A stretch of DNA of 25,305 nt from an uncultured Planctomycetales bacterium (GTDB taxonomy: Bacteria; Omnitrophota; Gorgyraeia; Zapsychrales; Fredricksoniimonadaceae): assembly GCA_964492215.1 (NCBI GenBank), contig CAZBJT010000001.1, positions 1 to 25,305 on the forward strand. Direction: 5' to 3'. The notes beneath the pieces were generated by a model. That model was given only the letters and a program-made list of their open reading frames with translations, was not told the DNA's origin and ran no database searches. The position numbers and the translations under genes were made by a program. This document shows positions 1 to 25,305 of this stretch, one piece after another; position 1 is the stretch's first letter, and every line of letters begins with the position of its first letter.

Positions 1-3000
1 AAGATCGGATAAGCCTATCTTGATCCAATCCGCAGCTATTACATTAAAGCTATATAGATCTCTCTTGTATTTGGATTTTCCCTGCCCCATCCACGAGACT
101 AACGCTACCTGAGGCGTACCCGTTAACTCTACCAAGGTACATAACGCTTCTTCATCCGCTAAATAAAAGCGATCATCTTTTAATAAATGATGCTGAGCCT
201 CATGACGGGCAACTTGATAGGCAATATAGGCAAATAATTGTGTTGATGCAATAACAGGCAATCCTAATTTTTGTCGTTTATTTTCGATCATCTTTATTTC
301 ATGCCAACATTGCCGCACATCAACCACTGGCTCGGACCCATTAACCGTTAAACCCATAAACGATGCTCTTCCTTTAGTCGGGTATTCGGTCAAAGCAACC
401 CGCACTCGCTTATTTTTAGCGTCCGTATCAATATAAAAATGACCATATACATCTACAATATCAAATGTTAAATCGCTACCGTTAGCACAACAAATCAAGA
501 ATAGGCCCTGCGATTCCAAATACCTGTTAATAATAATTGTGCGACGGAGCAAAAAATTATCTCTTTTAAAGTCATCTTGCACCAACCTCTTAGCACCTTC
601 CCACAAATCCTGCACCTTATGCAATAAAAGTGCATCTTCCTTAAAATAGTTACGCATTTTCTCATCAGCCTGATCTGGAAAATCATAATGCACAATGATG
701 CCTTTTTTCTTACGTAATGATCTAGCTAATGAGGTTAATTTGATATTTTGTATAGGATGAAAGAATGGATTATCCAATACCTTGGCATAACGATGCGGCA
801 TGCGTCTGTTTAATCCCATGGTCATCAGTGTGCGCCCGAAGAGATGTTCATTCGCTTTGATCAATACTTGCAGGGACGGATTGTTTTGATATTCGGCAGT
901 GGCTTCAACATTGATAGGACGGCCATGGTTGGTTTGATGCCGCATGAAATTATTCATCCGGTGCACGGCCGTACGGTGTTCCGTAGAAAGATCGTGCTCG
1001 TCCATCCAAGCCAAGACCGCAGCAACGTCCGGATTATTATCATGCAGTGCTAAAAACTCCTCACGCGTAATGTCCCCATCGTGCAACCAGCGCTCTTCCC
1101 AAAGCGGGGCTTGTTCATAAATAACGGCCAACTGCTCCGCTTCTGTCCGGGCCATATTGTACCGGCGCATAAAATCAGCGGCCTGCCATTGTTTGGTCAG
1201 CCGGGCGTATTCTTCCACGGTCTTGGCAAAATACCTGGTTTTCCAATCATAGCCGGTGGATCGCGCACTTTTTAAAGCTGTGATATCACCGACGACGCAC
1301 ACTGATTCGTCAGCAAAACTGATGGCATCAATGAGCGGATCGATCTGATGGGTGTAACCGGCACGGGTAGGCTCTTTAGAACTGCGGGTCATGCCCACGA
1401 TAAGCACCGGCGTGCGCCTGGTTAAACCCTCCGGGATTGTCACCCGATTCGCAATAAAATCATGCAAATCCCCGGTGCTGCAATGCGCTGCAAGAGCGCC
1501 TTTCAAAAAGTCCTGCATCTGCTTGACCTGTTGAGGATAAAGGACAATAACGTGCATATCTAAGAGTGCCCTGCCCTGCTTTAAGAGCGACACGATCCGC
1601 CCCGCAATGACTTCCGCCTCATATTGATTAATGTATTGACCATCCACGACCGGTGCATCATATCGAGCCTCGCCGCCAATCACCGCTGTATCCACCACAT
1701 TAAACACCCCTGGATCAATGCGGCCGTAATGGTTGGCGCGTAGGCTCGGCTGATTACGCAGGCGGCCGACCAACTCACTGATGACCCAATGGCTTGGACT
1801 CAATGATGGCCCTGCCGGGCGTGCATACACCTCTTGCATTTTGCGGCGCACTTCAGCCACATAAAGGTTATATTGTTCTTTGCCGAGGCCTAATGGCTTA
1901 TCTAGGGAATGTTGGTAACGGGTAATTTCATCAAAATCATTTTCATTCAAGAGTCCGGCTTCGATAAACAAACGCATGCGGCGGCTCAAAGCGGAACCAA
2001 TGCGAAGAAAATGGGAAGAAAGCCCCAGGCCCTTGTTGACATTCCCTAAATAATTCCCCCAATTGATCCCAATGGCATTATCAAGAGAACTTAAATACGT
2101 ATTATTCAACCTTCCGATGATCTCTATCGGTGCTATCAGGGCCTTGGATTCTTCATTGATGGCAGCAACCAGCGCCCGGACCGCAGCTACCCGCACACGC
2201 GGATCCAGATTTTTCTCTACGGCGCGCAGCATAAATGGACTCAATGGCTGTTCGAATGCGTATAAAGTTTCTCCTAAGAACCGCAGTGGTACGCCGCCCC
2301 AAATGTCAAGCATCACATCTCTCAGGCAATTTCCCGATACCTGGGTAAACGGCACATTCCAGTCATCTGAAGGAAATTGTTCCTCTAAGTATGCGCGCAG
2401 TTCCAGCACTGAAGCAATATCCTCGCTGGCTTGAAGCTGGGCCAGGCGTTCTTCCAGATACCGGCGCCGATAGGCAAATGATGCTGATGCCCCGGCATTG
2501 ACATAGGTGCCGGGACCAAAAATTTCATCCACCATGCGCCCTATTTTCTTTCCAAACACGTCTACATAAAGCTTGTTCAATGCAGGCACATAAAGTTTGA
2601 AGATTGGACCTTTGTGCCAGGTGATGTGAAAAACAGTCAACTGTGTCGGGGAATCAATCAAAGAATCCGCATGCGGTAGTTCCTCTGGTTTCAAATACCC
2701 CAAGGTCACCAAATGGGCACGACGTTCCATGTATTGAGGCGAATAGAATTCCAATAAAGCGCATAAGGCTTCATACTGATCATTGGGGGCATCCCACCGT
2801 TTGGGATCGTTCCCATCAAACATCCACCGGGCCAAGACACGCGGTTTGCCGATGCTGAAACGTTCAATGACCAACGTAGGAAATCCCGCCATGATGATCT
2901 CCGGCAAATACACCCGATGGCGGACTAAATTGCGCTGCAGATTATGACTCAAATTATCGACGCGGGCATAGATGACCGCTTGAATACCTTGCGGCTGCAA

Positions 3001-6000
3001 TCGACCCCATGCCACCAGCTCATCGCGGACTTGCTTGATCAATGCTGCACGGGATACATCTCCGGTGCGCTGATGCGTAGGCTTCAAAACCGTTGCCAAT
3101 GTTTGGGGTAAATGGCCGTCGTGCATGGCATAAAATACATAGGATGCCTTTCCATTCGCCTGAGGAACAAAATCAGGGTCGATCAAATGTTCATGGCCGG
3201 ATGCCATTTGTTTCATCCTTTGGGCAATGGCATTTTGAACAGCGACCATTTTAGGCTTTCCCCCGCTCTTGTGTATTTTTTCCAATTCATCGATAAAAAA
3301 TGCATACTCGACGATCTCATTGAATAATTTATGCCACAAATCAAATAATTTGACCGCTTCACGATCAGTCATAAAAAGTTCGCGGCGGCTTTTCATGCGC
3401 ACGCGGCCTTCAAAAGGACTGTGCAGGAAACTCAATACTCGTCGTTCCTGCTCATATTTGATGTCTAATGCCTTGACCAAAGCAATCAATCTTTCTTGGT
3501 ATGGCGTTAGTTCACCCGCATGGACCTGTGCGTACCAGGCCACAAATTCCTTAATGTGCCGGTCTTCCTGTTCACCAATCAGTGTCAGATCTTTAAATGG
3601 CGGGATGTCGACATTAAAAAATAATAAGCCATGCTCCATCACCGGCAGCTTTATTCCCTGCGACGCCCGGGTGAATTCTGGGGAGGATGTTTTTTGCCAT
3701 TTGAAAAATGCATCAATTTTATCGTGCTGGTGAGCAATATAATGCTTAAGCGGGACAATGACTTGCTCACTGTATTTGCCTGCTTCTTTAATAGCCGCAA
3801 GGAAATCGTTCAAGGCGTGCGGCCTTCTTTCGCTTAAACCGGTGGGGTGATTTTCATCCAAGGCGTCATTATAAAATACGGCCAATGGGCATTTCTTCCC
3901 TTCAGCAGACAACAGGCTTAAGAAGTTGGCTTTAAATCCTTTCATCGTCGCTAAAAATTTGATTTCAGCACTGCAGGCCACAAATTCGGTATTGATCCTG
4001 TTAGGGTCATGCGGATCTCTCCAGTCAACTCCCGGGGCCCGGCTCATTAGAATCTCCGCCGCCTCATGCCAAAGCTTGGCGGTCAAATACACCACTAATG
4101 CCCGCCTTTGTTCATCACTGAATTTCTGCCAGAAGTATCCGTCACGGTCAAATATCTTCTTCCACTGGCCATTGATCTCGATTTGAAACGTACCATTACG
4201 CATACGGCGGGCCTGGGCCGCCACATGTACTGGCATTCGCGCCCACTTTAATAATTTTTCCTTACGCAATTTGTTTAATAAGTGCCGCATGGCATTTAAC
4301 GCCTGCCTGTGGTCTATGGCATAACCTAAAAATGGATTGTCCGGTATATTGATCAATTCAAAAGCTTCCTCCAATAACTCTTGATCGTCGATAGGAACGG
4401 CATTGTTTCCAACACCTTCATCTTCATAAGCTTCCTCGATATGATCTATCGTGATACCTTGGGAAGGACGCAGGGTAGATGTGACCGCCATGCCTCTTAT
4501 TTTTTTCACTATATCGAGCGGCAGGTGAAGTGTTGAGAGTGCGACGTCTGACATCTTGGCATAAAACATGCCGGACAAAGAAACCTGGTCTACGCCGGGC
4601 AATAAGCAGCCGCATTTCCACGCTGATTGCCTTAACAAAAATGCCGCCATGCGTGGATAAACCTTTAATATCTGGGTGACCGGCCCTAAAAAAGAGCCGA
4701 TGATCGGCAAGAAAGAAAAGGCGGCAGCCATGATGGCCGGTGACTTGCGCGTGACCCATAGGGTGATCCCCACCCGAATAGCCCCATTGAAGAAAACCCC
4801 CGCGACATACCATGGATTAAATCCGCCATGGATCAGCATCAGTATGGAAGCAAAATCAATGCCAGGGATTTTGATGAGATAAAATAAGAACAATGACAAT
4901 AATTCGATTAATTGCGGGTCTTTTAATTCAGCCCTGATCTCCGCCTCTTCTGCGACCGTGATCGTTCCATGAGACCTGGCTTTTGTGATCCTGTCGTCGA
5001 TCCATTTCCGGGTCAAAGTCTCTCGATAGCTAGGAATAAATACAATGCCATAAAAAAACAGCCCCATATCGTGCATGAGGTTTTCAATCCGTTGGGGCAG
5101 GCCTCTTAATACAGATTTCGATCGGATTTTAAAATCATGCCATAGGATAGGTAATTGTTTGTGTAAAAACCAATGGCGGTATTTATCGCGATTTATCTGC
5201 TCGCTCTGGCGCCATTGCTTGACCGACCATTCCAACCGGTCAATAACTGCGGCGGTGGCAGCATCCTTGGCTTGCGCGCGCAGCTTGATAAAATCAATGG
5301 CATCAGCGAACGGAAATAATCGCCAATGAGAAACCCACTTGTATATGTACCCCAGTTCAAGGGGCAGCATTAAAACCAATCCTCCAACCACACCTGGGAC
5401 GATATCCACTAAAACCATTTCACCTGTTGCCTCATTGATGAAAATATTACCCAAGGCATTAATGTTTAAAGGATCTGTCTGACGGGCCGTACCAAAAAAT
5501 CCGATGCCATCGAGGAATTTCTTGCGGCGGGATAATTCCGACAATGTGGTGGATAACTCACCCCAAAACGCCGGTGACGCCCTGGGCTGAATCTGTGGAC
5601 TGAATAAACGGGCCAATGGAAGATGAATACGGTTAAACCAAAAATCCTGGATCAGCGATGCATTAGGACTGGCCAAGCGCATGTGCCGGCCTTGCACAAA
5701 ATCATAAGCCTGCACGTAACTGTTAGTAGCTTCATCGAAACGTGTGTATATGACTCTCGGGGTAAGGTCTTTTCCCGTCTGGGCATGATAAAGGTCATTG
5801 ATCAACCCATTGGCAAAATGAGCGGTTAATACCGCGTACAAATTATGCCGATAGGCAAATGGTGCCTTCCGGATAAAACTATAAATCGTGTCCGCCACAA
5901 ACTTACCTAAGCCGGATTCCCTATCCATGCTGCCAAAATGCTTTTCAACATATTCCCGGCCTTGGGCATCTTTGACCAAATAAACAACCGAAGCCAACCC

Positions 6001-9000
6001 TGCCCCTAATTTCTTGATCACCGTACGTTCACCCACTGTGAAAGGATTACCTTTGGTATCAATGGCCCGGATGGTCGACGGCAGGATTTGATCAGGTTGT
6101 AAAATCGATTTTTTAGGTAATGCATATTCATCCGGCCAGCCAGAAGGAAATCCCACGGTCTGGACGGCTAAATCGAAATCAGCAAATTGCCCCGTAGGAG
6201 CTGCGACTGTTTGTGTGACAGGCTTAACGGTCTTAAACCCGAAGAAAATAAGCCCGCCATATAAGACAGCAGCGAGAATTAATAAAGCCACTGAGGCATG
6301 CGCTGCAAAAATAAAAACATTAAATACCGCCGTGGCAAATGCCAGCCATTTAGTCCACGGCTTTACGACCAATGCGGATTGATTATTTTGGTTTAGAAAA
6401 ATAGCTGAGGCAATAGCACTAAACGGCGAGATCATGCCCATCATGAATGTGCGGGTGGCTTCATTGGGGAAGAAATAAAAAACAAAACCGAACCAAATGG
6501 TCAAGACGATAAAATTCAACCGGGTCGCGTAAAGCATCCCCCGTGATTTCTCTTTAATGATGGCGCTCAATAAACCTTTTGTTTTGTGTTTGGCTTTGAG
6601 TTCTTCCCGCCGGCCCCAACTCTCCACCCAGCCATGCACAATCAAACTTAAAATAATGACGGAAATGGGTGACGTGGTGATTTGATCTGCCAGACCGCCC
6701 AGCCATAACGGCAGTGTTGCGGTCCATATCTCATAAGTCAGCGCCCAGAACCATCCCATGATGCCGACACTGAGCGGCAGCACCAACAGCTTCCACCGCC
6801 ATAAAGGTTTCCAGGTCACTTTTCCCTGCAGGCGCAAATGGATCAATTGGCCGATATATTCGCCTAATGTGATGAATATGGCCCAGCCGATGATCCCTTT
6901 AAGGCTGGCTACCATCAACAAGGCTTGCCACCCGCCTATATAAGAGAAGCCGGCTGGAAAAAACATTTTCTGAAATGATAATGGCTTGATTAGGTATTGA
7001 ATGAGTCCAAAGATGATCGCAATGGCCGTAAGGACAGTGGCGAAGAAGCGATCACCTATTTTTTGACGGGCGGCCTGGACTTTATGGTAGACACCCAGCA
7101 GCGGATTTCTTGAGACTGCTTGCTGCTGCATAGCTAATAGCGTCGGGTGTTCTGGAGTAAACAAGTGCGTGATATATGTATTTGTTACCGGTGTGCCATG
7201 CCATACGGCTTTGTTGTAGTCAGCATGGACTTTGGCGGCGGCCTTGATGCCTGCCCAGCGGACATCGGCCGGACTTTCTTGAGCAAGGAGTGCCGCTTCG
7301 CGCGCATGCTTATAGGCAAAGTCTGTGGCTTCACCTAAGGCTAAAAGTACATCAATTTGTGGGTTACTCGGATCTTTCACCCACCCTTGGTCTTTTACAT
7401 AGGCCTCAACATGGCCCAAAGCAAAATCCATAGGATTCCCACGTCTACCATTCTTGGCGGTGCGGTCGATCTCCTCTGTCAACGCAGCGACATCAAAAAA
7501 TTCATCCACCCTACCTTGTTTGATGGCCGACTCAAAGTCTTGCTTGTGTTTTTGCTGCAGCCCTAAGGGTGCAGTCCTTACTGCTGCACGCGCGGTAAGC
7601 AAATAAATAGCATATAAATGCGCTGTCTCAAAAGGCCGCACCCTTAATTTCTTCTGACTTAAAATCGCTGCGGTCAAATCCATGGCCCCATGAGAGCCGG
7701 CAACAACATACGGTTTATTCCAAGCCAATACTTTGGCCTGCGGCATGGCCTGGATCAATTGAACCGCACCCTGACCAAAACGATCCAAGGTTTTGCCCCG
7801 GCTGTCGCCATCATGCCTTTGCGTAAACGTGGGGCGGTGATCTTGTTCATAGGAATCCCGCCATAAAACAAAAGGCATGTTCCAAACTAACCGGTCAACA
7901 TCAGCCAATTCAGGACGCAAATGACCCTTTTCATCCACGATATTATCCGCCAATACTGCCTGCCTCAAGGGAATGCCCAAAAGCCGGGCCGTAAATTTGG
8001 TATTGGCTATCTCCATGGGATTAATACCCAATACACTGATGTCGCTTTTTCTTCCCCTTAATCCAAGGAAGACCGCCCAGGTATCAAAACCAGCACCGGG
8101 GCCTACAACCATAACATGATGGGATTCTTTTAAATCCAATGCTAAAGGTCGGTTGGCAACGATCGCGCTGTAATATTCCGCGTCTACATTTTCATCCCCG
8201 TTATTCTGTCCGAATACCGATGGAAAAATCGGAACAATGGCCCAGTGTGCACCATCATGAGCATCAGCCATGCCCCATTTAGATAATGCATCCATGCTTT
8301 TGGCCCATACTTGAAACTTGCCTGATTCAAGACATAGGCGCGTAAGGCGATAAGACAGATTACCTATACTCACCATATTAGAATCGACATTAAAATTGAC
8401 CAGCACCTCTTTTAATCGGCCCTGCATGAATATATATTCCTGATGATTGAGCCGCCAAATATTTTTAAATTGTTCATGGCCAGGCTGGGCTACTTCTGCG
8501 TGATAAGACGTTAAGTCAATGTAAACATTGTTAGGCTTTACCAGGCATCGCTTATCTGGAAAAATACCAAGCCAACGTCCGCACTCATCTTTGACTAACC
8601 AATAGGTCAAATAATGCTGATGGTCTTGCCCATAAAGCTCACGGGCCAGCCATGACCAGCCCGGGTGAGGTTTATTGCTGTTAGGCAATAACTTCTCAAG
8701 CGTGCATTCACCCACACGCAATGTTTGCAGGACATTCATGTGATTGAGTTGCAATGTTTCGGCGATGGCGGAGATTGGTGTGTCTTTAGACTGAAGATAT
8801 TGCACTGCTTGAGGTTTATTCTTATTATTAATCTGCGTAGTAATCATAAATGGGAGACTGGCAGCTAAAACTGCTCCTCCTGCTGCATGCATTCCCAGCC
8901 AAACATATGTAAATACAACTGCAATAGCGAAGAGTAGTTTTACCAATAACTTCTTATTAGTCTGCCTATGCATGGCATGACCTACAAACAACGGTTCAGC

Positions 9001-15000: not shown

Positions 15001-18000
15001 GGGCGGCTCGGTCTTGTTGCCTTGCCGGGCATTTATAACTTCATCCACAACGCTGTATGAAACTTTAGAAATGCACGAAATCTCCTTCATGGAATATTCC
15101 AATGCCGAATCCCGGATTTGGCGACGTAAATGTTTTTGAGGACTATCTTTCAGGGTATCCAGCGCCGTCTTAATCTTCTGATATGTAAAGAAAGTGGGAT
15201 GGCTGCGGCGACTTAAGATAAGGGCGATCGTTTGCCGCCTCACACCGGACAATTTGCTAATTTCATCTTGTGTATGTTTCAAGTCGATCTTTTTTTGAAT
15301 GTCCTCAATTAATGCATCCAATTGCTCGTGAGAAATAAGCGGTCCGGATGGTTTATGTGCAGGTCTTTCTCTTTTAGGCAGTTTAGCTACCTTGGCTGAT
15401 ATTTCTCTCGTTAATGCCCCATTTTTTACCTCTCCAGATAGCAGTCGCCTCAAACGACTAGAGCTGAGACCAAGATGTGCAGCTATTTCCAGCAATGTAT
15501 AACCTGCCGTTACTGCTTTATTAACGGCTTCCTTGCAGTGAACTAAAGACAAACTTATATCTTCAGGAGGCAGTTGGAATCGTTGTGGCTGTTGAGGCAT
15601 TGCTACCGCAGAAGGATGATCATTTGGAAAAAGAACTTCTAAAATAGCCTGGCGCCAATTAAATTTACGCATCTGCGTTTTCCTATGTGCAGGTATAATC
15701 TCTACATAATCTCCATCGATAGATTTTACATGGCCACCCACTAACCCCGCACCCGCTGGACCTGGATACCGTATTTGATCTCCCTCTTTAAGTTGATATC
15801 CTCTTTTTATTGCGTCCATCAACGGATGCCACTTTTCTAAATCCTCGTCTATGTGCAACAACAAACCTTTCCTTGCCTGATACACATTCCAGTTAAGCTC
15901 GAAATGCTTATCACTGGCGGCTGCCATGGCTATTCCGTTTACTTTGCGTTGAACTTCGGCAGGTAACGTAACCGGTACACGGCTGGCAGGATAAAAATCT
16001 CTCAATGCCAGCTCACGGGCTGCTTCATAAGCTAAATCAACAAGGGTCGCCTGCTCATATAAAAAGTCCCAATCAGCTTGTTTGGCATCCCGCCAATCCA
16101 TCTCAATCAAGTCAAAAACCCTCTTATGTTTTAAAGCAAATGCCCGACGGGAATTTTCATCTCTTTTATAGCGACGGGGTTCTTCTTCTCCTCTTGCCGC
16201 AAGGCGCATATATTCTTTAACAGCAGCATCACCGGCAGCTAATGCGATTCTCAGCCCCGGCGCATACGCCTGTTGCATAGCCAATAAATGGTGACTGTCA
16301 CCATTTATTTTGCGTTGGATGCGGGTGATATGGTTGCGCCAATTGATGTGGAGGATAAAATCGCCGTCGTCCCAGGCGCGCAGGGTTTCGAGCATTAACG
16401 GAGGGCCGTTTACGTCTGGTTTTTCAGAATTGACGCAATCGTATATATTAGCGGCCCGCACCTTTTCGAGAGGTTGGACGGACAAAGCTGCAGCTGACTT
16501 TAATGTCTGCGCCATGGGCAGGTCGATATCTTCAAATCTATCGCCGACAATCACGGTACGGCGCATATCAAAAGATGTTTTGAAATATTTCTCCAATACT
16601 TTCCACTTGCGTAAATACCTTAAGCTTTCCCCTTTGTCCCAAACAAATTCTACCGATCTTTTAGTTAGGGGATCTCTTATCTTTATTGTTTTGCGAGGAG
16701 TAAACAAAAGCATGGTTTGGCGTACGAAAAAAGCAAAAGATCTTAATAAAACATCCAGATTAATAATTTCCCGCGTCAATGGCCATGGGGTTATCGGCGC
16801 AAATGTGCCATTACGGACATCAGTGAGTCGATGGGCATAAGTAACCCGGGACAGAACGATCACTCGGGAACGCACATCTTCATCCAACAGGCTGATCCAA
16901 TCCTGCCAAATGTCTTTCTCATCATCAAGACTATTAATGACCTGTATACCGCCAGTGTGCAAGAACCGGTTGTATTCTTTGACCAATTCTTCTTCTGTCT
17001 GGAAACGCCATTTCCCTCCCTCTTCCACCGGCTCATAAACCAGCGTGCCGCGAAAATCATCGACGCGGATCATTGATGCCGATGAAGTGCGCATATTGAT
17101 CAAACCCAAATCATAGGCTAAATGTTTAAAGACACGGGTCAAATAGCCTTGAGATAAAGGCACGCCATAGGTGAAAAATAAACGCAGGGCTTTTTGCTGC
17201 GGGGGGGCATAATCATGCCAGCGGATCAATGTTTCCGTATGGCCGAATGACCGGGCCGCTTCTTCAATAAAGACAGCGCCGACAAAAACAATCGCCGCCA
17301 ATGCTATCAATTTCCACCAGATGAAATATCCGCCAACAACCATGTGTAATATCAATTGTGAAATACCCACTACTAATAAAATCAAGGCGGGATAGCGGAA
17401 CATGGGTAGCATGGCCTGAGGAGAGTCCGTTTCTGTCGGTTGATCTTTTGGTGCCCTGGCCCAGCCTTTTTCGGCGATCTGTTCCGGCGTAAGACCCAAT
17501 TCACGCAAATAATGCCAATAGGTCGGCCACCACTCCTTAGCGAATGAAATCGTCGTGTATACCGTTGGTAATTTACGTGCTTTCCAACCCTTAAAAGTAA
17601 GATCAGGTGCGGCTGAGCCTAAATTATCGCGACCCGCCTGTAACAAAGCCTCTTTGGTCCATTTCGTTGCACCCTGGCTTTCCCTGGCACTCATGTCCTT
17701 CTGACGCTTGGCCAAAGCTTCTTCATCTGCCAATTGATGCTGTTCAGCATAGCGGCGGACTTTCCGACGGAAAATGGATTTCCAATCCCGGATCTTCTGC
17801 TGTTCTAATGACGTACCGCCATGCCGATTTTGCCAATTCATACGGATAGCATCATGAGAACTTTGCTTCAAATACCCCTGCAAGGCGCTATCGTTCAACA
17901 GGACAAATTGCTCATCCTCAGTCAATTCAATTTTCATCTGCCTCACTACGTTCAAAGGCATACATAACTCTGCCATTAATGCCTCAAGCCCGTCTTTGCC

Positions 18001-21000
18001 CTCTTTGACAATTTCCAATGCCGCCTTTAACAAACGTCGTATTGATTGAGACGAAAGGTCTGCAATGGGCCCTGCTAGAAGATTTTCCGCATCCAAGGTT
18101 CTAATCACTGTTACTGGGTCAATATTTTTCTCACGATTGACCCCTGTTAATAACTGCAAAATTCCTCGGTGCACAGCCAAAAGATACGGCCAGGTCTTTA
18201 ACATTTTCTCCTCGGTAAAACCTTCCGTGTATGATGCGGGATATGTTTCCATCACCCGTGCATGGATAAGCTTGATATCATCTATCGTAGACGGCACCTC
18301 GACATGCAAAGACCGACGCCCGGTTATGACAAAACCCAAAATCATCAGCACCATATTTTTACTAAATTGCTCATCGCCTAGAGCGGTATACAAGTAGCCC
18401 TCTATTTTTAATGCTTCTATCGCACCGTCAGATAATCCACTCAACGTCTTGATCTCTTCCAGCGAATATCTTTCTTGGGATGATTTATACACTTGATTCC
18501 AAATGGCGCGAAAATGGTCAGGACGGTCGGTGGGCAAAGCGCCAAAAATAACAGGCAATGTTTCAATCAAGACATCCGTAAGATCATCTTTATGGTGGGC
18601 TTCAATAAGGCTTAGCGGCACAGCCCTGTTGTGGACCTTCGAGAATTGCCAACGGGCACGTGGTGCTGCATCAGGATTTTCTCGCAACTCTTTAAGCAAG
18701 TAAATTTGAACTTCTTGGGTTGGTTCATATGTTACAAAAACCCCGTCCATCGTGACTTCAGGTAAGGCTGGAACAAAAAATAATGCGTATCGGAGCTTCT
18801 TCTGTTGGCTGGAGACGACTTCTGACTTGAAACATTCTTGGCCATCTAACCCTTGGCCTGTTGTAAACCATGCTCCTATGCGATCGACCATGGCATTGAC
18901 TTCTTCACCATTCGACTTTCCCGCACGATACTCTAAAAGAGAACCGGTTAATGCCTTCTTGCCCAGGTTAAGAGGACTTTCTTTAACAGGTTCAGTGGTG
19001 ATCGCTGCTTCAACAACAACGGAAGCAGGGACAATAACAGTGGCATCGGATTCTTCTGGAGCAGGCGGAGCCCTTGGCGCTGCCGGCTCAGGTGTGGGTG
19101 ATACTAGCTCTGGTTCAGACGCAGGTGCAAGTACAGGTAGTGGTTTTGGTAAAGAATTGGTAGACGCTACCAATTCTTTTTGGGCTGCCGGCGGTGTTCT
19201 GGGTGAAGGGATGGGGGTGGTGCTTGTTGGGGGGATGATTTGCCGGGTATGGCCATTGTCTCTCATGAGTTTTACAATCTGTCCCTTTTTCTCGGCGATC
19301 ACATGGACGACTTCCCCTTCAAAACGCATAAACTCGCCTAGAAAATCATGACCATCAAATATAGCCAATATCTCTACCGGATAAGCCCGACGGCTAAATG
19401 TGACAAGCCCGGAATCCCGACGTGCACCTTGACTGCCTTTGGCAAAAACGAAACGTAATGGACTGCCTCCTACTACCGGGATTTCGATTACACCCTGGTG
19501 CAAGCGGGCAGAATAATCAGAGATATCCGACAACTCTGCCCCATTACGATACCATGTCGCCAAAGCAATGGATTGTGCATCGTCCAGATCAGGCTTAATT
19601 CCTGCGGAGGCTGCATCAGCGGCCGCCCCAGAGGCATCTGTAACAGTCTCTTCTGCAATACCAGCTGCTGGTTGCGGATCAATAAAAGAATTGGTAGACG
19701 GCACCAATTCTTTTGCTGGGGCGGGGATGATTTTGGCTTTTGTTCCGTCTTCCATGACTTGATGCACGATGACGTTCTCTCCCCGTCCTGTAACTACGAC
19801 ACGGATCACTTGGCCTTCGAAACGCATAAACTCGCCTAATACCATCCAATGACCTGACACTTCTCTTAACACCTGTAACGTCTCTACGTTATCAGAATAA
19901 AACTTACGGCTTAGCGTAACTTCACCGTCGGGTATGTCATTGCCTGTATTGTCTTTGAATAAACGGAATTGTAATAAACTAAAATTCGGCACCACGATGT
20001 TAACATCCGAATAGACCGGCCATTTTCGTTTGTCCATTTCGATCAGACTTGCAGGCTTAAAAGGGGTGCTCTCAATATGGGCCGGATAATCTCCAAATGA
20101 AAGTGCATGACCTTCCTGATGATACCAACGGGCCAATGCGGGAAAATCAGCATTGCTCATACGTAATTCTTTCATCACTTCCTGTATAAATGCATTGTTT
20201 TTCCAATCAGGATGTTCAGCCAAATTAGAAAGCAAAGCGAAGCGCGCACCTGGTAAATTCTCAAACCTTATGGCATTTCTTACCTCAACCCATACGGTTT
20301 GCGGGCTCTTGAGTTTTTCATCTTGGTAAACATCAATGACCACTTGCGCAATGTCCACATCAATATCCAACTTGGCATTAGCTTCATCCAAATGGTCGAC
20401 GATACGCACAAAATAATCTAACAAAGCTGAAGCTTTAGGTGCGGTCAATATTTGATGGTTACCGGCATGGGTACGAAATATATCAATGCCGTCGCTTATT
20501 TCCTTCAAGTTTTCCATGGTGGGTGGATTTAGAAAATTAGGGATATCGGTAAGCTGCACCGCAGCAATTTGGGCTTGAGTCCCAGCTATATCTAAAGCAC
20601 TTTTAAGTACGGCGGATTTACGGGCCACACTTTCGGCCCTCTCTTGCTGCACAACAACCTCGCCTTCCTTCGTTGCCATGGGGACTTGCATGTTGCTTAA
20701 AACGTTGACCAGCGCACGGCGACCATCCTGCTTCACCTTAAGCAGACGTGCCTCTTCATCCCGAAGAGCTTTGGCGCGGCGTTCTTCACGCTCTTGGTCT
20801 AACAGGCGCATCAAGGCATCGAATTCTTTTAATTCCTCGGGGAATCCTTCTAAAGCTTCACGCACAGTACCAACCAATGGCAGGGCTTTTGCATCATGAT
20901 CGCCGCTGATCAAGGTCTCGATCTCATTACCCCGCTGGGCAACTAGGGTATCGCGCACCCGACGGGCTTCGGCTTTTTCCGCTGCTTCTTTGGCCTCTTT

Positions 21001-24000
21001 AGCTAAACGCACATCATCACGCCGTTTGAATTCTGCCTGACGTAATATTTTTACCTGTGCATTAAATGTGGTGAGCTCATTGGCATCTTTAAGTAATCGT
21101 TGTGCTTCCTGGATCAATTCATTGACTTGTGCATCTTCGATTTCTTTAGGTAATGATGTTTTGATAGCAGCAATGGTTTCATTCACATACCCGGTGATGG
21201 CAAGTGCGCGCATGGGTTTAAGAATCTCTTTGCGGCGGTTGCCCGCTTTTTCCCATAGCCCATGCAACAATCTCCAGGCTTTCTGCATCTCACCTTTTTC
21301 CATATGCAAACGGCAATCGGCTAAATTTTGTGAATCAGAAGGTATAGATGTAGTGGTATTAATCACTGCAGCAAACCATGTCCCTATGGCCTGAAGGGTA
21401 CGGGCAAAATCATCGGCGCTCTTAACACCGACGACAGGTTTATCCAGGCGTTGTTTCCATGCCCTTTGTTGTGCGGCCATTTGCTGCATGCTTTCAGCTT
21501 TGGCTTCAGTCAACGGCTGAACAAAAGCTTCGCTTAAAAAACCATTAGTCTGATCTGAACTTCCAGTCAAGGCCCCACGGGTTGCATACCGGCTGCTCAA
21601 GGCCTGCTCAAGGGACGTGTCGTACAAAGCTTCATAACGCCCGCGCACAAAGTCATAAGCACCGGCGACATTATGAGATTTAGGGCCCAACATTGCATCA
21701 GTCAGGATAGCTATGCCAAGTTCAAAGAAAAATGCCGGGCGCGTACTCTCAGGCAAAGATTTTACTAAATGCCTTAATTCAGGCAATGCAGCCAGCCATG
21801 CCGGGGCTAATTGTTTGTCGAGTTTTTTGGTAAATTCTTCCATACCGTCGGCAGGTATCAACCAAGCCCCTGCGGCATCACGGGCTAACCCTAGAGCAAT
21901 AAGCGGCCAATACATTTGGCAGGCATCGGATTTTATTAATTCGACGATTGTTCTCTTCTGCTCAAGGATCTTCCAACGCTTTAAAGCTTCAGGTTCGGCG
22001 ATATCCCATTGGGCGATTTTATTGAAGGTGCTGGAGATTTCCGGCAGCTTGGGGACGGTCACTTCCACCGTGGCTGGTACTTGCTGTACGGGGGGTTGAG
22101 CATCCTTAGCCCCTTCTGGGTCTGGATTCCCGTTGTCACGGGAATGACATTCAGGGACAATAACGGCAGCTTCAACTTCCGCTGTTATAGGTGCTTCAGG
22201 CTTTTCTTCTTTAGCTGGTTCTGGTTGCTCTGGGGCCGGCTTCTTTGGCTCTGGTTCTTTTGCAGGCTCTGGTGTTTTCGGAGTATGGACTTTTACTTCT
22301 TTCATTTTTTCCACCGGCAAGGCTTCTTCATACTGAGTCAAATCGCCTAAATCAATACCCTCGGTATGCCTTAAGGTATTGCGTACAATCTCCCGGGCTT
22401 CGGGCCATTCAATGGGTTGCGCGCTTTTCTTCGTTACTTTCTTACGGGCAGCAAACTCTGTTAAAACACCTTCGAGCAAAGGCAAAGGTAATTGCCCAGC
22501 TACGTGTGCTTTAGCCTGTGCTTGTTTTGGACGTGCCACCGTATCGCTTTGATAATCCGGCCATAACATTTCCATCACCGCATAACGCAATAATTCCAAA
22601 GAATTAATATCGGCAAACATCCGGGAATCTTCCACGGTAAGGGGATGGCCAAAGTCTTCCCTGGATAACTCATCTGCCAGGCGTTCCGATGCATTAAGGG
22701 GGTACGGGACCATTTGCACAATATAGCCATGATTGTCAAAACCAGCCTTCAATCCCTGGCGCTGCTCGTCGATGCTGCGCAGCTGTAACGGCCTGGCTAA
22801 GGCCCGGGCTTGCAGCACATAAGCCATGGCATCCAAATACCCTTTCACATTCCCTAATAAAAGCGCATCCCGGGCTTTGTCTTCCCAATAATAGGCGCGT
22901 GTCAGATAAATCCAACTATCTAATTCAGGACGGATATGTTGGATGCGTACATTGATCGTACTTTTACTTCCATTATCGGCCAGGCGCTTAGTTAATTGTT
23001 CCTGCAGTGCAATCGCATAATCGTATAAAGCTACGGTGAATGCTTCGCTTTCATTGCGCGCGATGATATCACGTAATTTATTCCAAGCATTACTCAATCC
23101 TGAGGCAATGACACCTTGCTCATACCTGCCAAAAATTATTTCTAGTTTAGTTTGATTCTTAAACGCGATTTGACGCATAAAAGTCATATTCATCTGCTCG
23201 CTGCCGACGCGGTCGTTTAATTGGTATGTCTTCTCATCGGATTGATAAAGGATAGGACGGTAATCATTAGGGACCATCAAATACACAACCGCTTGTTGGG
23301 GCTCAGGAGAATCCGTGACTTGCCGGACTAATTCATTGACCTGTTCATCCAAAGCCGGACGCAAGGCCTCTAAATTTACCTTGTGGAATGAATCCACCGG
23401 CAGCACGACATGGCGATTACCCTTGCCGCCTAAATATTGCGGTTGAATAAACCCAGCTAAAATATCTTGCGGGATACCTAAACTTTCTAACCATGCCACC
23501 GCTAACCGGGGCGCTTGGGCTTTTTCAAAGAGCAAAGATTCATCCAAACCACCGGTCACCGCATCATCAGCTTTATGCTTTTCTAAACTGCGGATAAACT
23601 CCAAAATTTGATCATCGGTTAAATTGGCACAGAGCCGATCAAAAGCCCTGGCTTGCTCACTGATACTTTGGGGACGGATATAATCAAGCAAGATATTCCA
23701 TAAGGCCTCACGGATAAATAACGGCAAAGCAGCCTGTACATCTGCCTCGGGTGTCAGTGTGCTTAAGTCTCGCTTAATCGCCGCTTGGACTAATTTAGAC
23801 TGGATGGGAAAATCTTCTTCCGTATATTGCCCTGCCCGTTCCACATGAATACCTTCTTCAGATAAAAGACCGTCTAAGTCCAAATATTTATTGGTCAACA
23901 TCAAACAGCGCGAGCGCCCTTCTTTATAATCTGCCATCTTCTGTGCATATTGGTTTAAGAAGGCTATTTGATGCTGATGAATGCGGCCGGCATAATACAT

Positions 24001-25305
24001 ACGGGCTGCATTCTCGCCTGCATAAACATCCCAGTTTCCCCTGCGTAATGCATTTTTAGAAGTGTCATTAAAAGCACCGGCGATAGTGGCCTCCATAATG
24101 GCACGATGAAAATTCTCGGAAGGTAAGGCATGGTCAAGTTGGATCCTAAAACCAGGCCAAGTCTTTTTCCAAATAGGAAGCTGGGTGGTTAAATATTGCA
24201 TTAAAGCCTTATGGAATTCGGTGTGCCCCAAACCTGCCTGCTCAGCTTCAGATATGATGAAGTTCTGATCGTCATTCATAGGCACTTGAACATACTTCAC
24301 ATTATTTCTATAAATCTGCTCAGTCTTCTTTGCTTCTATGCTCAAGTCGACAAGTTCCAAAGGTTTAGTTGTGCCGAGGATCTTTTGCCTAAGTTTTGAT
24401 TTTCCGTCAACCCCTTGAATGGATTTGAGCGCATAAAAAGGAACCTGCACCGTCAATGTTACCGGTTCCTCCGATGGAGGCACAGAATTCAAGAGCACCG
24501 TAATGGCCGTATCAATATTCGCACGCGCCTTTTTAAAATCCTCCGCCCCCTCAATATCAGCATACACCCGGGCTAAATGCGGACCAGGCACGGTCACGGC
24601 CGATGACTGCGCAGCCCCATCAATAGGTGTCGTCATAGTAGCCGCCAAAGAATTGGTAGACGGCACCAACTCTTTTGTAGCTTGTTCTAGTACGCATAAG
24701 GGCTCTTCGGGCAAAGCGGGTTGGTGCGTTCTGCTCCAGGCTAAAATGTCTTGGGCCGTCCATTCATATTTATTGTCCGCGGCATACCTGGCTTCATTAT
24801 TCTTGATCAAAGTTTTAATTTGATCTGGATCAGCAGCTTTAACAATTTTCTGTACGGCATGGCTCCATGCCCTGAGGGGCATCATGCCGTTATGCTGGAA
24901 TGCACCGAAGGCGTGTACTAAACCTAATAATATTACCTGCCGGTATTTCTCAGCCTCGGGCATGTCCACCTGCCATGTCCGGGCAATAATCATATTATCT
25001 TGATAAGGGATTTCATCTAAACGTAAACCAGATGCAAGAATGGATTTTCCCGGAATCTTCATCTCTAATGCTTTAACGACATCTTCCGTAGAACGATAAT
25101 ACGTAAAAGGCTGCCCCAGCAGGACATGGCCAGGTTTTTTCAAGAGCTTATTTAATATTTCAACGTGCAATTGGTCAAAATACTCACATGTCTTAACAAG
25201 GGCATCCATTGACGCGATCCTGTAACGCGCATAATTGGCTAAATCCCCTTTATGCCAGAAATCAAGGGCCGCATGCTCAAGCACCAAGTAGCACACGCGA
25301 CTGAC
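1..25305 (-). CDS. Internal fragment (>=8,435 aa, open at both ends) of a giant multidomain membrane-associated protein
   Basis: Manual translation of the minus-strand frame over all lines found no stop codon, from VSRVCYLVLEHAALD (25305) to ...DWIKIGLSDL (1). Many family motifs and TM segments fall in this single frame. No start or stop lies in the window. Confidence 0.97.
130..700 (-). other. Zincin-like metallopeptidase domain (HExxH) within the giant CDS
   Basis: QLFAYIAYQVARHEAQHHLL (HEAQH at 190-204), preceded by strand-like VYGHFYIDTD and followed by LADEEAL, a candidate third-ligand Glu. Boundaries approximate. Confidence 0.6.
1270..1790 (-). other. Degenerate SF1 helicase C-terminal RecA-like domain (DNA2/NAM7/UPF1-like, AAA_12-type)
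   Basis: Motif order SHWVISELVGRL...FNVVDT...YINQYEAEVIAGRIVSLLKQG...HVIVLYPQQVKQM...VLIVGMTRS...AGY...IDAISFA...VCVVGDITALK parallels the AAA_12 pattern, but motifs V and VI are degenerate. Confidence 0.7.
4000..4240 (-). other. Zincin-like module with HExxE...H variant
   Basis: ALVVYLTAKLWHEAAEILMSRAPGVDWRDPH (HEAAE at 4054-4068, His at ~4009). Confidence 0.4.
4680..5400 (-). other. Hydrophobic/transmembrane block C-terminal to the kinase-like domain
   Basis: Hydrophobic stretches VVGGLVLMLPLELGYIY, MGLFFYGIVFIP, LIELLSLFLFYLIKIPGIDFASILMLIHGG, VAGVFFNGAIRVGITLW, AIMAAAFSFLPIIGSFLG. Confidence 0.6.
5390..6030 (-). other. Protein-kinase-like (Ser/Thr kinase fold) domain
   Basis: Gly-rich loop VIKKLGAGLASVVYLVKDAQGREYVEK (5941-6020), hinge-like YDFVQG, catalytic-loop-like TDPLNINALGNIFI and Mg-binding-like MVLVDI (~5401-5415). 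Confidence 0.75.
6250..7060 (-). other. Multi-pass membrane block, possibly Mpv17/PMP22-like
   Basis: About 6-8 hydrophobic helices. KGIIGWAIFITLGEYIG and IWFGFVFYFFPNEATRTFMMGMISPF resemble my recollection of Mpv17/PMP22-family N- and C-terminal patterns. Confidence 0.45.
7650..8240 (-). other. Class I SAM-dependent methyltransferase domain (HemK/MTS-like)
   Basis: Motif I HVMVVGPGAGFD (8089-8109), motif II-like VLGINPMEIANT, motif IV VDRLVWNMPF (7870-7884, NPPY/F-like), N-terminal IVPIFPSVF. Confidence 0.75.
8830..8950 (-). other. Transmembrane helix/hairpin
   Basis: KKLLVKLLFAIAVVFTYVWLGMHAAGGAVLAASLPFMI. Confidence 0.6.
9070..9520 (-). other. GNAT-like acetyltransferase domain
   Basis: Motif A-like ALLRANVDPDFRGGRMKFLL (9283-9306) and motif B-like LTKHFGFCP (9169-9180). 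Confidence 0.55.
9850..10260 (-). other. Membrane-embedded M50/site-2-protease-like metalloprotease domain
   Basis: Hydrophobic helix ending in TPVHELGHLLAA (HELGH at 10192-10206), LLAGFIANF (AGPxxN-like), further TM helices, then LPN...EGD as a candidate third-ligand Asp. Confidence 0.7.
11240..12150 (-). other. Alpha/beta-hydrolase domain (FrsA / 2,6-dihydropseudooxynicotine hydrolase-like)
   Basis: WAKTWKKYA...SIPFDGHLDIPAYL...VVTFPGIMANKE...DLPGQG...IDASRIGVAGFSLGG (nucleophile elbow 11635-11652), LLGREDRLI (Asp ~11380), SGQNHY (His 11278-11280). Confidence 0.85.
11319..11343 (-). repeat. REP-like palindromic hairpin copy A (opposite orientation to B-D), translated in frame
   Basis: ttaattggtag-cgt-ctaccaattaa: perfect 11-bp stem with 3-nt loop; its core is the reverse complement of copy B. 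Reads LIGRRYQL in the CDS. Confidence 0.75.
12250..12480 (-). other. Degenerate zincin-like module (HE without second His)
   Basis: KPFLAWHKSRKEDVLMMHWQFVELVHEVVRY; the RKEDVL segment matches RKEDDVL of the module at ~14180. Confidence 0.35.
12690..13270 (-). other. Shikimate-dehydrogenase (AroE)-like NAD(P)-binding Rossmann domain
   Basis: DLVFLGAGASAHFWARAI (13042-13062), IFVFDADQRKAKQL, AVFNFMVPGLRG and KTVVDMNCDLPVFLTKAAMAGAEV follow the AroE C-domain motif order; the N-terminal substrate domain is not clearly recognisable. Confidence 0.6.
13980..14230 (-). other. Zincin-like module with HExxE...AH motif
   Basis: YGPPKEFIWARKEDDVLAIYF...LQVIAFHEITELEFMQSHSPQEAHRLA (HEITE 14062-14076; EAH 14023-14031). 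Confidence 0.5.
14818..15504 (-). other. Array of four tandem helix-turn-helix motifs
   Basis: GYTLLEIAAHLGLSSSRLRRLLSG (15433-15504), HTQDEISKLSGVRRQTIALIL (15214-15276), YSMKEISCISKVSYSVVDEVI (15034-15096), IARKAKVDLGTIRAILKG (14818-14871), with basic linkers. Confidence 0.75.
16490..17075 (-). other. HAD-superfamily-like domain, variant motif I
   Basis: IRVDDFRGTLVY (17041-17061; DxDGTL-like), GGIQVINS (motif II-like), TVIVGDRFEDID (16528-16554; motif IV). Confidence 0.55.
17250..17400 (-). other. Two transmembrane helices ending in EExxR
   Basis: YPALILLVVGISQLILHMVVGGYFIWWKLIALAAIVFVGAVFIEEAAR. Confidence 0.6.
17490..17664 (-). other. Single homing-endonuclease-associated-repeat-like unit
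   Basis: KWTKEALLQAGR...GWKARKLPTVYTTISFAKEWWPTYWHYLRELGL resembles the 'wt.e.i....lPs..ti...f.sW...l...G' pattern as recalled. Confidence 0.4.
18970..19260 (-). other. Pro/Ala/Glu/Thr-rich low-complexity linker
   Basis: IIPPTSTTPIPSPRTPPAAQKELVASTNSLPKPLPVLAPASEPELVSPTPEPAAPRAPPAPEES. Confidence 0.85.
19151..19179 (+). repeat. REP-like palindromic hairpin copy B, translated in frame
   Basis: aaagaattggtag-acg-ctaccaattcttt: perfect 13-bp stem. Reads KELVASTNSL in the minus-strand CDS. Confidence 0.85.
19230..20150 (-). repeat. Tandem duplication of an uncharacterised ~160-aa module
   Basis: ALARWY..GH/ALATWYRNG; VTLSRK/VTFSRR; LGEFMRFEGQVIRV/LGEFMRFEGEVVHV; both units end in IIP. DNA 19316-19340 and 19814-19838 are 24/25 identical, offset 498 nt. 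Confidence 0.8.
19684..19714 (+). repeat. REP-like palindromic hairpin copy C, translated in frame
   Basis: aaaagaattggt-agacggc-accaattctttt: 12-bp stem. Reads KELVPSTNSF. Confidence 0.85.
20200..20420 (-). other. Possible degenerate PD-(D/E)xK nuclease-like domain
   Basis: DIAQVVIDVYQDEKLKSPQTVWVEVRN: D...ExR in place of D...ExK (20275-20295). Confidence 0.3.
20640..21330 (-). other. Charged coiled-coil/helical region
   Basis: E/K/R/A-rich helices such as LAKEAKEAAEKAEARRVRD and LLDQEREERRAKALRDEEARLL. Confidence 0.6.
22020..22330 (-). other. Pro/Glu/Lys-rich low-complexity linker
   Basis: TPKTPEPAKEPEPKKPAPEQPEPAKEEKPEAPITAEVEAAVIVPE. Confidence 0.85.
22780..23100 (-). other. TPR-like helical region
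   Basis: SWIYLTRAYYWEDKARDALLLGNVKGYLDAMAYVLQARAL and FTVALYDYAIALQEQL show TPR-like amphipathic patterns. Confidence 0.35.
24100..24480 (-). other. Possible PD-(D/E)xK (restriction-endonuclease-fold) domain
   Basis: PIQGVDG...LELVDLSIEAKK (IEAK at 24328-24339) fits G-x-D...E-x-K. Confidence 0.4.
24647..24675 (+). repeat. REP-like palindromic hairpin copy D, translated in frame
   Basis: aaagaattggt-agacggc-accaactcttt: one stem mismatch; one substitution from the core of copy C. Reads KELVPSTNSL. Confidence 0.8.

Follow-up and report, generated by a model that had tools for sequence, protein, structure and literature searches.

Giant bacterial genes are a recently recognised and still poorly understood class, and they raise a question that the literature states explicitly: is so long a product used whole, or is it cut up? 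The giant genes of the Omnitrophota encode numerous transmembrane (TM) helices and highly divergent enzyme domains, most of the full-length giants carry a SecA_DEAD-like domain and/or a C39 or S8 peptidase, and autoproteolysis by embedded peptidases has already been proposed for them, at cleavage points that are not known (West-Roberts et al. 2023, bioRxiv 10.1101/2023.11.21.568195). A catalogue of 916 proteins of at least 10,000 amino acids (aa) describes a "multi-enzyme" class with methyltransferase, GNAT, HAD, histidine-kinase ATPase and other domains; TM helices or a signal peptide are present in 94% of the catalogued giants, a TM-only "membrane-anchored cytoplasmic-domain" architecture accounts for 46%, 15% have no Pfam match, and of the clusters formed at 30% identity, 80% have a single member (Nielsen & Lui 2026, bioRxiv 10.64898/2026.06.07.730766). 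Here, we describe a 25,305-nucleotide stretch of DNA (contig CAZBJT010000001.1, positions 1 to 25,305, called the window throughout), which is an internal 25.3-kb piece of one giant minus-strand gene whose product has at least 8,435 residues. Genes of this kind are known already, and most fully documented from the Omnitrophota; the window adds a very divergent example.

The window matches the published description of the multi-enzyme class feature by feature, and its likeness to the Omnitrophota "multi-enzyme" and "Archaeovorin" giants is broad: one enormous open reading frame (ORF) with many unrelated enzyme and regulatory modules, none of them dominating; TM helices spread along the chain, roughly one per 370–530 aa; domains highly divergent from their families, large Pfam-dark stretches and no close sequence relatives; and, for the one well-conserved module, a best homologue that is itself an Omnitrophota mosaic protein. 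There are differences as well. The published catalogue begins at 10,000 aa, whereas the window protein, whose two ends lie beyond the window, is known to have at least 8,435 aa, and this slice has no SecA_DEAD domain, C39 or S8 peptidase, glycosyltransferase, NUDIX or dockerin domain and just one Pfam domain above threshold. We infer an Omnitrophota-type origin of the gene.

What might such a chain do? An earlier reading of the letters of this DNA (hereafter, the sequence-only reading) had seen a polyprotein-like "enzyme necklace" with built-in proteases, to be cut into effectors or else to serve as a membrane-threaded scaffold. We argue that the product is probably one membrane-tethered scaffold, whose catalytic and nucleic-acid-binding modules would face the cytoplasm, several of them being degenerate.

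Results

One open frame across the window

Frame -1 contains no stop codon in 25,305 nucleotides (nt), that is, in 8,435 codons, and the remaining five frames contain 298–618 stops each, or one stop every 14–28 codons on average. Given that density of stops in the other frames, a stop-free frame of 8,435 codons cannot be chance.

1..25305, minus strand: single ORF, slice of a giant gene; residue 1 is encoded at window positions 25303–25305, and the frame is open at both ends

The ORF fills the window and continues past both of its ends, so its real extent exceeds the span 130–24480 given to it in the sequence-only reading and exceeds the window itself; neither end of the gene lies in the window, and the product length is known as at least 8,435 aa. 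The span 130–24480 corresponds to aa ~276–8392. The order of the domains in the earlier description fits translation of the minus strand; its extent is too small. The continuous ORF itself, read from the minus strand, is real: each 500-codon block shows the coding-type order GC1 > GC3 > GC2 in its GC content by codon position, and in amino-acid composition the product resembles an ordinary protein. Of the listed ORFs with both ends inside the window (those running off its ends being excluded from the listing), none is longer than 199 aa; the antisense ORFs, up to 199 aa, gave no Pfam match, and we regard them as shadows of the long frame.

A few recognisable modules in a divergent chain

For the profile scans, the protein was divided into ten overlapping pieces of 1,000 aa, which were run against Pfam, NCBIfam, PHROGs and PADLOC; the alleged domains were rescanned as separate pieces at E ≤ 10, and the protein was also compared with all sequences of the Protein Data Bank (PDB). 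The protein is highly divergent, and a missing match with these tools is not proof that a domain is absent. Along the chain stand many distinct and unrelated modules, with no repeat dominating, namely four helix-turn-helix (HTH) units, an AroE-like Rossmann module, an FrsA-like hydrolase, an M50-like segment and an AAA_12 remnant.

11176..12306, minus strand: FrsA-family alpha/beta-hydrolase with N-terminal helical domain, aa 4334–4710
11644–11646, 11380–11382 and 11278–11280, minus strand: predicted triad Ser4554 (in GFSLGG), Asp4642 and His4676, respectively
12700..13149, minus strand: NAD(P)-binding Rossmann module of the shikimate-dehydrogenase (AroE) type, aa 4053–4202, with a GAGASA loop
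14716..15522, minus strand: four XRE/Cro-C1-type HTH units, aa ~3262–3530, one per ~65–70 aa (from HTH_3, PHROG and alignment)
9856..10248, minus strand: HELGH at aa 5034–5038 (window 10192–10206), then two strong TM helices at aa 5090–5133
1285..1641, minus strand: remnant of an SF1-helicase C-terminal RecA-like domain, aa 7889–8007 (Pfam AAA_12)
190..204, minus strand: second HExxH motif, HEAQH, aa 8368–8372; its domain may be cut by the window end

The esterase that the sequence-only reading had called is borne out as an FrsA-type hydrolase. Its module matches alpha/beta-hydrolases among the PDB sequences (E = 3.7e-5), and an exhaustive HMMER search of 1.84 billion proteins returned 132 matches, the best with E = 9e-32. 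An AlphaFold2 model built from a 47-sequence alignment has a mean pLDDT of 91 and a pTM of 0.92, and Foldseek with this model finds Wdyg1p/Ayg1p, AntI, 2,6-dihydroxy-pseudo-oxynicotine (DHPON) hydrolase and FrsA with E down to 6e-16, in matches that are near full length, include the helical N-terminal domain and reach their highest TM-score, 0.70, with FrsA 4i4c. Ser4554 and Asp4642 occupy alignment columns conserved in at least 90% of the sequences, and His4676 coincides with the GxH consensus of that alignment. Although PF06500 is matched by 43 of the 47 aligned homologues, the window hydrolase's own sequence does not match it, Abhydrolase_1 alone appearing in the scan at 16.8 bits, below the Pfam cutoff. 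With the FrsA/Ayg1p-AntI/DHPON hydrolase family (PF06500), then, the module has in common the two-part fold, the GxSxG elbow and the Ser-Asp-His triad, and it differs in sitting inside a giant protein rather than being free-standing and in scoring below any Pfam cutoff.

The "dehydrogenase-like" domain of the sequence-only reading is an AroE-type NAD(P) Rossmann domain, as a set of concordant weak profiles indicates (NCBIfam shikimate dehydrogenase at E = 0.003–0.006; Pfam Sacchrp_dh_NADP and OCD, both weak), together with an HMMER match to the AroE-like protein P0011 in the same exhaustive search (E = 1e-8; handles of this form denote proteins from the searches), with which it shares 34% identity over 154 aa in pairwise alignment (E = 9e-18). 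The HTH array, likewise, has been confirmed: HTH_3 (PF01381), the sole curated Pfam cutoff passed in the whole protein, scores 31.0 and 28.4 bits against a gathering threshold of 23, PHROG profiles of transcriptional regulators match, and four units can be seen in the alignment. The helicase fragment is weak. The C-terminal half of AAA_12 is matched near threshold (24.6 bits against a cutoff of 27; profile positions 84–193 of 195), and a motif scan upstream of the segment found no Walker A and no DEAD box, on which account we call it a remnant.

For the nuclease, HAD, GNAT, methyltransferase and kinase calls, there was no support in Pfam, NCBIfam, PHROGs, PADLOC or the PDB sequence searches. 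HAD motif I did not turn up in the motif scan, nor did the alleged kinase region show motifs of a kinase-type catalytic loop; for the methyltransferase and kinase calls, ad hoc HMMs made from the corresponding modules of the relatives, which are small and weak models, were negative; and a single-sequence AlphaFold2 run on aa 4990–6189, which takes in the M50-like, "GNAT" and "methyltransferase" parts, gave a mean pLDDT of 37 and was unusable. PADLOC returned faint HTH matches alone, Rfam returned no match, and the tandem repeats are trivial. In other words, the HTH array, the dehydrogenase-like domain and the esterase have been recovered, with a near-threshold helicase fragment and a weak first protease beside them, and the five calls just named and the second protease found no support in the profile or PDB searches. 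About half of the calls thus lack the support from profile searches that the sequence-only reading had itself set as a condition, and reading an "enzyme necklace" from the letters overcalls domains about twofold.

Membrane segments, linkers and the HExxH motifs

Hydropathy places 15–17 hydrophobic, TM-like segments in six blocks along the chain, hundreds to thousands of residues apart; one is the helix pair that follows HELGH, and the others are listed with the linkers. The segments themselves span aa 2640–2680, 5090–5133, 5453–5471, 6088–6348 (about seven helices), 6631–6649 and 6807–6876.

17263..17400, minus strand: TM block A, two-helix hairpin, aa 2640–2658 and 2662–2680 (Kyte-Doolittle 19-aa means 2.35 and 2.36)
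8836..8949, minus strand: TM block C, aa 5453–5490, one or two helices (hydropathy)
6211..7059, minus strand: TM block D, polytopic, aa 6083–6365, about 7–8 helices (hydropathy)
aa 6631–6649: further TM block (hydropathy)
4606..4914, minus strand: TM block F, aa 6798–6900, about three helices (hydropathy)
22111..22293, minus strand: Pro/Glu/Lys-rich linker 1, aa ~1005–1065
19006..19260, minus strand: Pro-rich linker 2, aa ~2016–2100

Both the TM blocks and the Pro-rich linkers claimed for this chain are therefore real, six and two of them having been found. Since block A is a two-helix hairpin, the chain would return there to the same side of the membrane.

The two "intact" HExxH proteases fared less well. 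Exactly two such motifs exist, HELGH at aa 5034 and HEAQH at aa 8368, where 0.42 would be expected from composition. The HELGH segment appears weakly M50/RseP-like: it gives Pfam Peptidase_M50 at E = 0.018 and 14.8 bits against a cutoff of 27.2, its best PDB sequence match is RseP 7w6x (E = 0.038), and, as in M50/RseP proteins (PF02163), an HExGH-type motif lies in a hydrophobic stretch directly flanked by hydrophobic helices. Unlike those proteins, the segment is well short of the family cutoff and has no PDZ domain, and the canonical second S2P motif NxxPxxxxDG, which carries the third zinc ligand, was not found in aa 4990–5300; among the 1.84 billion proteins, it has no homologue at E ≤ 1e-3. 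The HEAQH region matches nothing in Pfam or the PDB. Both motifs stand, and of the two alleged proteases one gives a sub-threshold M50 signal and the other matches nothing.

Mosaic relatives and their junctions

At the level of the locus, nothing close was found. An exact 40-mer is absent from genome, viral and metagenome contig collections, megablast and tblastn against phages gave nothing, a related-locus search in the genome and metagenome collections gave no relatives, and tblastn against plasmids gave one marginal 165-aa hydrolase match. A word-indexed protein search with aa 3436–8435, aa 1–3435 and aa 4040–4710 returned nothing at E ≤ 1e-3; because it missed matches within aa 4040–4710 that exhaustive HMMER finds (the 132 hydrolase matches), its negatives are not evidence of absence.

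The hydrolase module does have relatives, and they are of a particular kind. Each of the ten best matches (E from 9e-32 to 6e-12) lies as a module inside a longer protein; these proteins have 992–6,479 aa, six of them more than 3,000 aa, and stand-alone hydrolases score E ≥ 1e-8. The best match, P0001, is annotated as Candidatus Omnitrophota and is a mosaic with a PLP-dependent enzyme (PALP), a histidine-kinase ATPase (HATPase) and a PrmA-like methyltransferase; P0004 combines acyltransferase, FrsA-like and kinase domains, and P0008 has GH77 and GDPD domains. The genes for these three proteins, whose contexts were fetched, lie among ordinary chromosomal genes. Mosaics of 3,000–6,500 aa (P0001, P0002, P0004, P0008, P0009, P0010, P0012 and P0027) share the FrsA-type module, helical N-terminal domain included, at 24–37% identity, and they are likewise strings of unrelated enzymes, like beads, some with TM stretches. 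Beyond the hydrolase, they have nothing detectable in common with the window protein. The sole other module in common is the Rossmann module, matched by P0102, a separate 2,838-aa protein without a hydrolase match. Several of the mosaic relatives have an N-terminal "IQDAH...EAQ" domain and a C-terminal "...A-x-A" end, and the window lacks both ends of its gene.

These relatives repeat a short motif at domain-sized intervals: R[SA]ExR in P0001, P0002, P0004, P0009 and P0027 (11–17 times in the longest, against ~0.1 expected) and [GA]ARLA in P0008, P0010 and P0012 (4–9 times, against about 0.1 expected). The motif DNA was examined in loci L001, L003 and L004. In P0001 and P0008, the motif is written with varied codons, which points to a peptide-level motif. 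In the gene for P0004 (L003 10001–29440; 6,479 aa), 15 of the 16 junction motifs are RAEVR, encoded mostly as CGC-GCY-GAG-GTG-CGG despite a GC content of 43%, and the sites fold as a hairpin, CCGCGC-YGAG-GUGCGG, with a mean minimum free energy of -11.2 kcal/mol against -3.9 kcal/mol in control windows; there, the junction motif is therefore under constraint as nucleotide sequence, too. From their sequence, the five-residue motifs look like polyprotein punctuation, and a literature search found no paper describing R[SA]ExR or [GA]ARLA.

The window protein differs from these relatives in that their intermodule motif is absent from it. A BLOSUM 9-mer scan gave 24 pairs against 11–12 in shuffles, and all 24 belong to a palindrome, a duplicated domain or a Pro-rich linker or are isolated pairs; a reduced-alphabet 5-mer scan gave no outlier, unlike in the relatives. 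From the two scans, we conclude that the window protein holds no recurrent cleavage-type peptide motif.

Palindromes within the coding sequence

One peptide does recur in the window protein, KELV[PA]STNS, with three copies in linkers (aa 211, 1865 and 2043). It is encoded by a near-identical 29-nt palindrome, AAAGARTTGGT-(7 nt)-ACCAATTCTTT or AAAGAATTGGT-(3-7 nt)-ACCAATTCTTT, and the core of that palindrome occurs once more elsewhere in the gene.

24647..24675, minus strand: palindrome copy 1, AAAGAGTTGGT-GCCGTCT-ACCAATTCTTT, encoding KELVPSTNS at aa 211–219 in a low-complexity linker
19685..19713, minus strand: palindrome copy 2, perfect 11–12-bp stem with a 7-nt loop, encoding KELVPSTNS at aa 1865–1873
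19151..19179, minus strand: palindrome copy 3, 13-bp stem with a 3-nt loop, encoding KELVASTNS at aa 2043–2051 in Pro-rich linker 2
11319..11343, minus strand: palindrome copy 4, core AATTGGTAG-nnn-CTACCAATT, encoding LIGRRYQL, aa 4655–4663
16283..16309, minus strand: further perfect palindrome, AATAAATGGTGAC-n-GTCACCATTTATT, with 13-nt arms and 1 nt between them, aa 2999–3008
19681..20163, minus strand: duplicated ~150-aa domain, copy 1, aa 1715–1875, with an LGEFMRFEG core, ending in palindrome copy 2
19147..19593, minus strand: duplicated ~150-aa domain, copy 2, aa 1905–2053, ending in palindrome copy 3

As RNA, copy 1 folds into a hairpin of -18 kcal/mol (z = -3.3) and copy 2 into one of -15.5 kcal/mol (z = -4.9), and copy 3 has a z of -4.9 as well. 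The arm codons of the three copies are identical save for one GAG/GAA change, in copy 1, which preserves a G.U pair on the sense strand; the rest of the differences lie in the loop. Copy 4, whose core spans window 11321–11341, has the opposite orientation and a different reading frame from copies 1–3, and it falls in the sole low-confidence surface loop of the hydrolase model (model residues 326–329, pLDDT <50). The perfect palindrome at 16283–16309 may be a diverged relative of the 29-nt element. Perfect hairpins with stems of at least 11 nt number four in the window against 0.09 in 100 synonymous-codon shuffles. The two copies of the duplicated domain stand in tandem and are the only internal duplication in the protein (BLASTP: 32% identity, E = 3e-15), and the palindromes in which they end have diverged far less than the domains have.

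We considered whether KELVPSTNS might be a site of peptide cleavage and rejected this, since its DNA core recurs inverted and in another frame; the peptide is, by the same token, a by-product of a nucleic-acid element. The excess of hairpins over the shuffles, too, argues for nucleic-acid elements tolerated in frame and not for peptide cleavage sites. To judge from its sequence, the palindrome behaves as a nucleic-acid element, which might be a REP-like insertion, an RNA hairpin or a protein-binding site. Neither plasmids nor the loci of the relatives contain it.

XRE-type HTH units typically bind inverted repeats. Here, four such units occur in a protein whose gene itself holds four or five long palindromes; any link between the two would be pure speculation.

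Discussion

Before the product can be discussed, one has to ask whether the frame is a gene at all. It has hardly any database relatives and few profile matches, as one would expect of a chance, decaying or mis-assembled open frame. That view we regard as very nearly untenable: the frame runs through 8,435 codons where the others stop every 14–28, its pattern of GC content by codon position is uniform, a hydrolase fold within it is modelled at high confidence with all three predicted triad residues present, and its HTH passes a Pfam cutoff. Is its product, then, a self-processing polyprotein, an effector arsenal whose embedded proteases cut the precursor into enzymes acting on a host or prey cell? 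We think this unlikely, although it has something to recommend it, for there are two HExxH motifs where fewer than one is expected, one of them beside TM helices and with a faint M50/RseP similarity, the relatives that share the hydrolase repeat R[SA]ExR or [GA]ARLA between their modules, with varied codons in P0001 and P0008, as one would expect of a site cleaved or recognised in the peptide, and autoproteolysis is what the literature proposes for this class (bioRxiv 10.1101/2023.11.21.568195). In the window protein, however, the relatives' motifs are absent and no other short peptide is enriched, the sole recurrent peptide is the by-product of a DNA palindrome, the M50 signal is sub-threshold and lacks the second catalytic motif in the stretch searched, the second HExxH matches nothing, and the modules that have support are cytoplasmic housekeeping types, not toxins. 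The analogy with MARTX toxins and viral polyproteins, which the sequence-only reading had drawn, extends to a very long single polypeptide with heterogeneous modules and fails beyond that: RTX/haemolysin-type repeats and Peptidase C80, the InsP6-activated cysteine protease, had no match in Pfam or NCBIfam, and the scans found no recurrent cleavage motif, no known effector domains and no viral protease fold. Proteolytic self-dissection is possible, yet it is not indicated by this sequence.

The chain might instead be mostly exported, as a surface-exposed predation or adhesion protein of the "Archaeovorin" or dockerin type that digests or binds the cell wall of prey. Giant Omnitrophota proteins often combine a signal peptide with TM helices (39%) and are encoded near secretion and glycoside-hydrolase genes (bioRxiv 10.64898/2026.06.07.730766), and the N-terminus of our protein, with any signal peptide, lies outside the window. 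Against this, the Pfam, NCBIfam and PHROGs scans found no CAZyme, dockerin, TSP3, lectin, adhesin or beta-helix domain, the HTH, NAD(P) Rossmann and FrsA-like modules require cytoplasmic partners or cofactors, and the AlphaFold2 model of aa 4990–6189, for what its low confidence allows, is mostly helical and not a beta-solenoid. We hold export and predation to be improbable, more so than self-processing.

The membrane-tethered scaffold is the reading that we prefer. In it, long, mostly helical stretches without detectable relatives would alternate with the few recognisable modules; the clustered TM helices would tether the chain, so that modules of cytoplasmic type would be held at the inner face of the membrane; and several of the modules would be degenerate and non-catalytic. 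The "membrane-threaded scaffold" that the sequence-only reading had offered as its alternative fits what was found, TM blocks that include a clean hairpin and that alternate with HTH, NAD(P) Rossmann and FrsA-like modules. The ORF, the modules, the TM clusters and the hydrolase kinship are observed, and the topology and the scaffold function are inferred. Several points nonetheless weigh against the scaffold, or at least against our placing of it. Its topology comes from hydropathy alone, and the N-terminus lies outside the window, with any signal peptide. Some 85% of the protein is functionally dark and might conceal secreted or effector modules, and the M50-like segment, if its faint similarity is a guide, could in principle free modules by intramembrane cleavage. 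No close relative of the whole gene was found in collections of ~15 billion proteins; the SecA_DEAD and C39/S8 domains typical of full-length giants were not seen by Pfam or NCBIfam in the 8,435 aa and may lie outside the slice; and the window has no taxonomic marker, the link to the Omnitrophota being made by one module and one named homologue.

What does this mean for the giant genes as a family? In this example, one enzyme module is modelled with confidence and the pattern of membrane anchors is clear, and the gene can serve as a test bed for the question of whether such products stay whole: both the hydrolase module and the HELGH segment are short enough to be expressed and offer obvious point mutants, and the palindromes give specific positions at which to inspect for processing. 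It is conceivable, if a long shot, that giant mosaic genes carry in-frame nucleic-acid "punctuation" in the form of hairpins. In the window, the palindrome recurs in linkers, and its core lies inverted in a surface loop; in the gene for P0004, a GC-rich hairpin encodes RAEVR 15 times. If such hairpins mark the points where the transcript is cut or paused, or where modules recombine, they would supply the "cleavage point" information that giant genes have seemed to lack, and segmentation would take place at the level of RNA or DNA and not of a protease.

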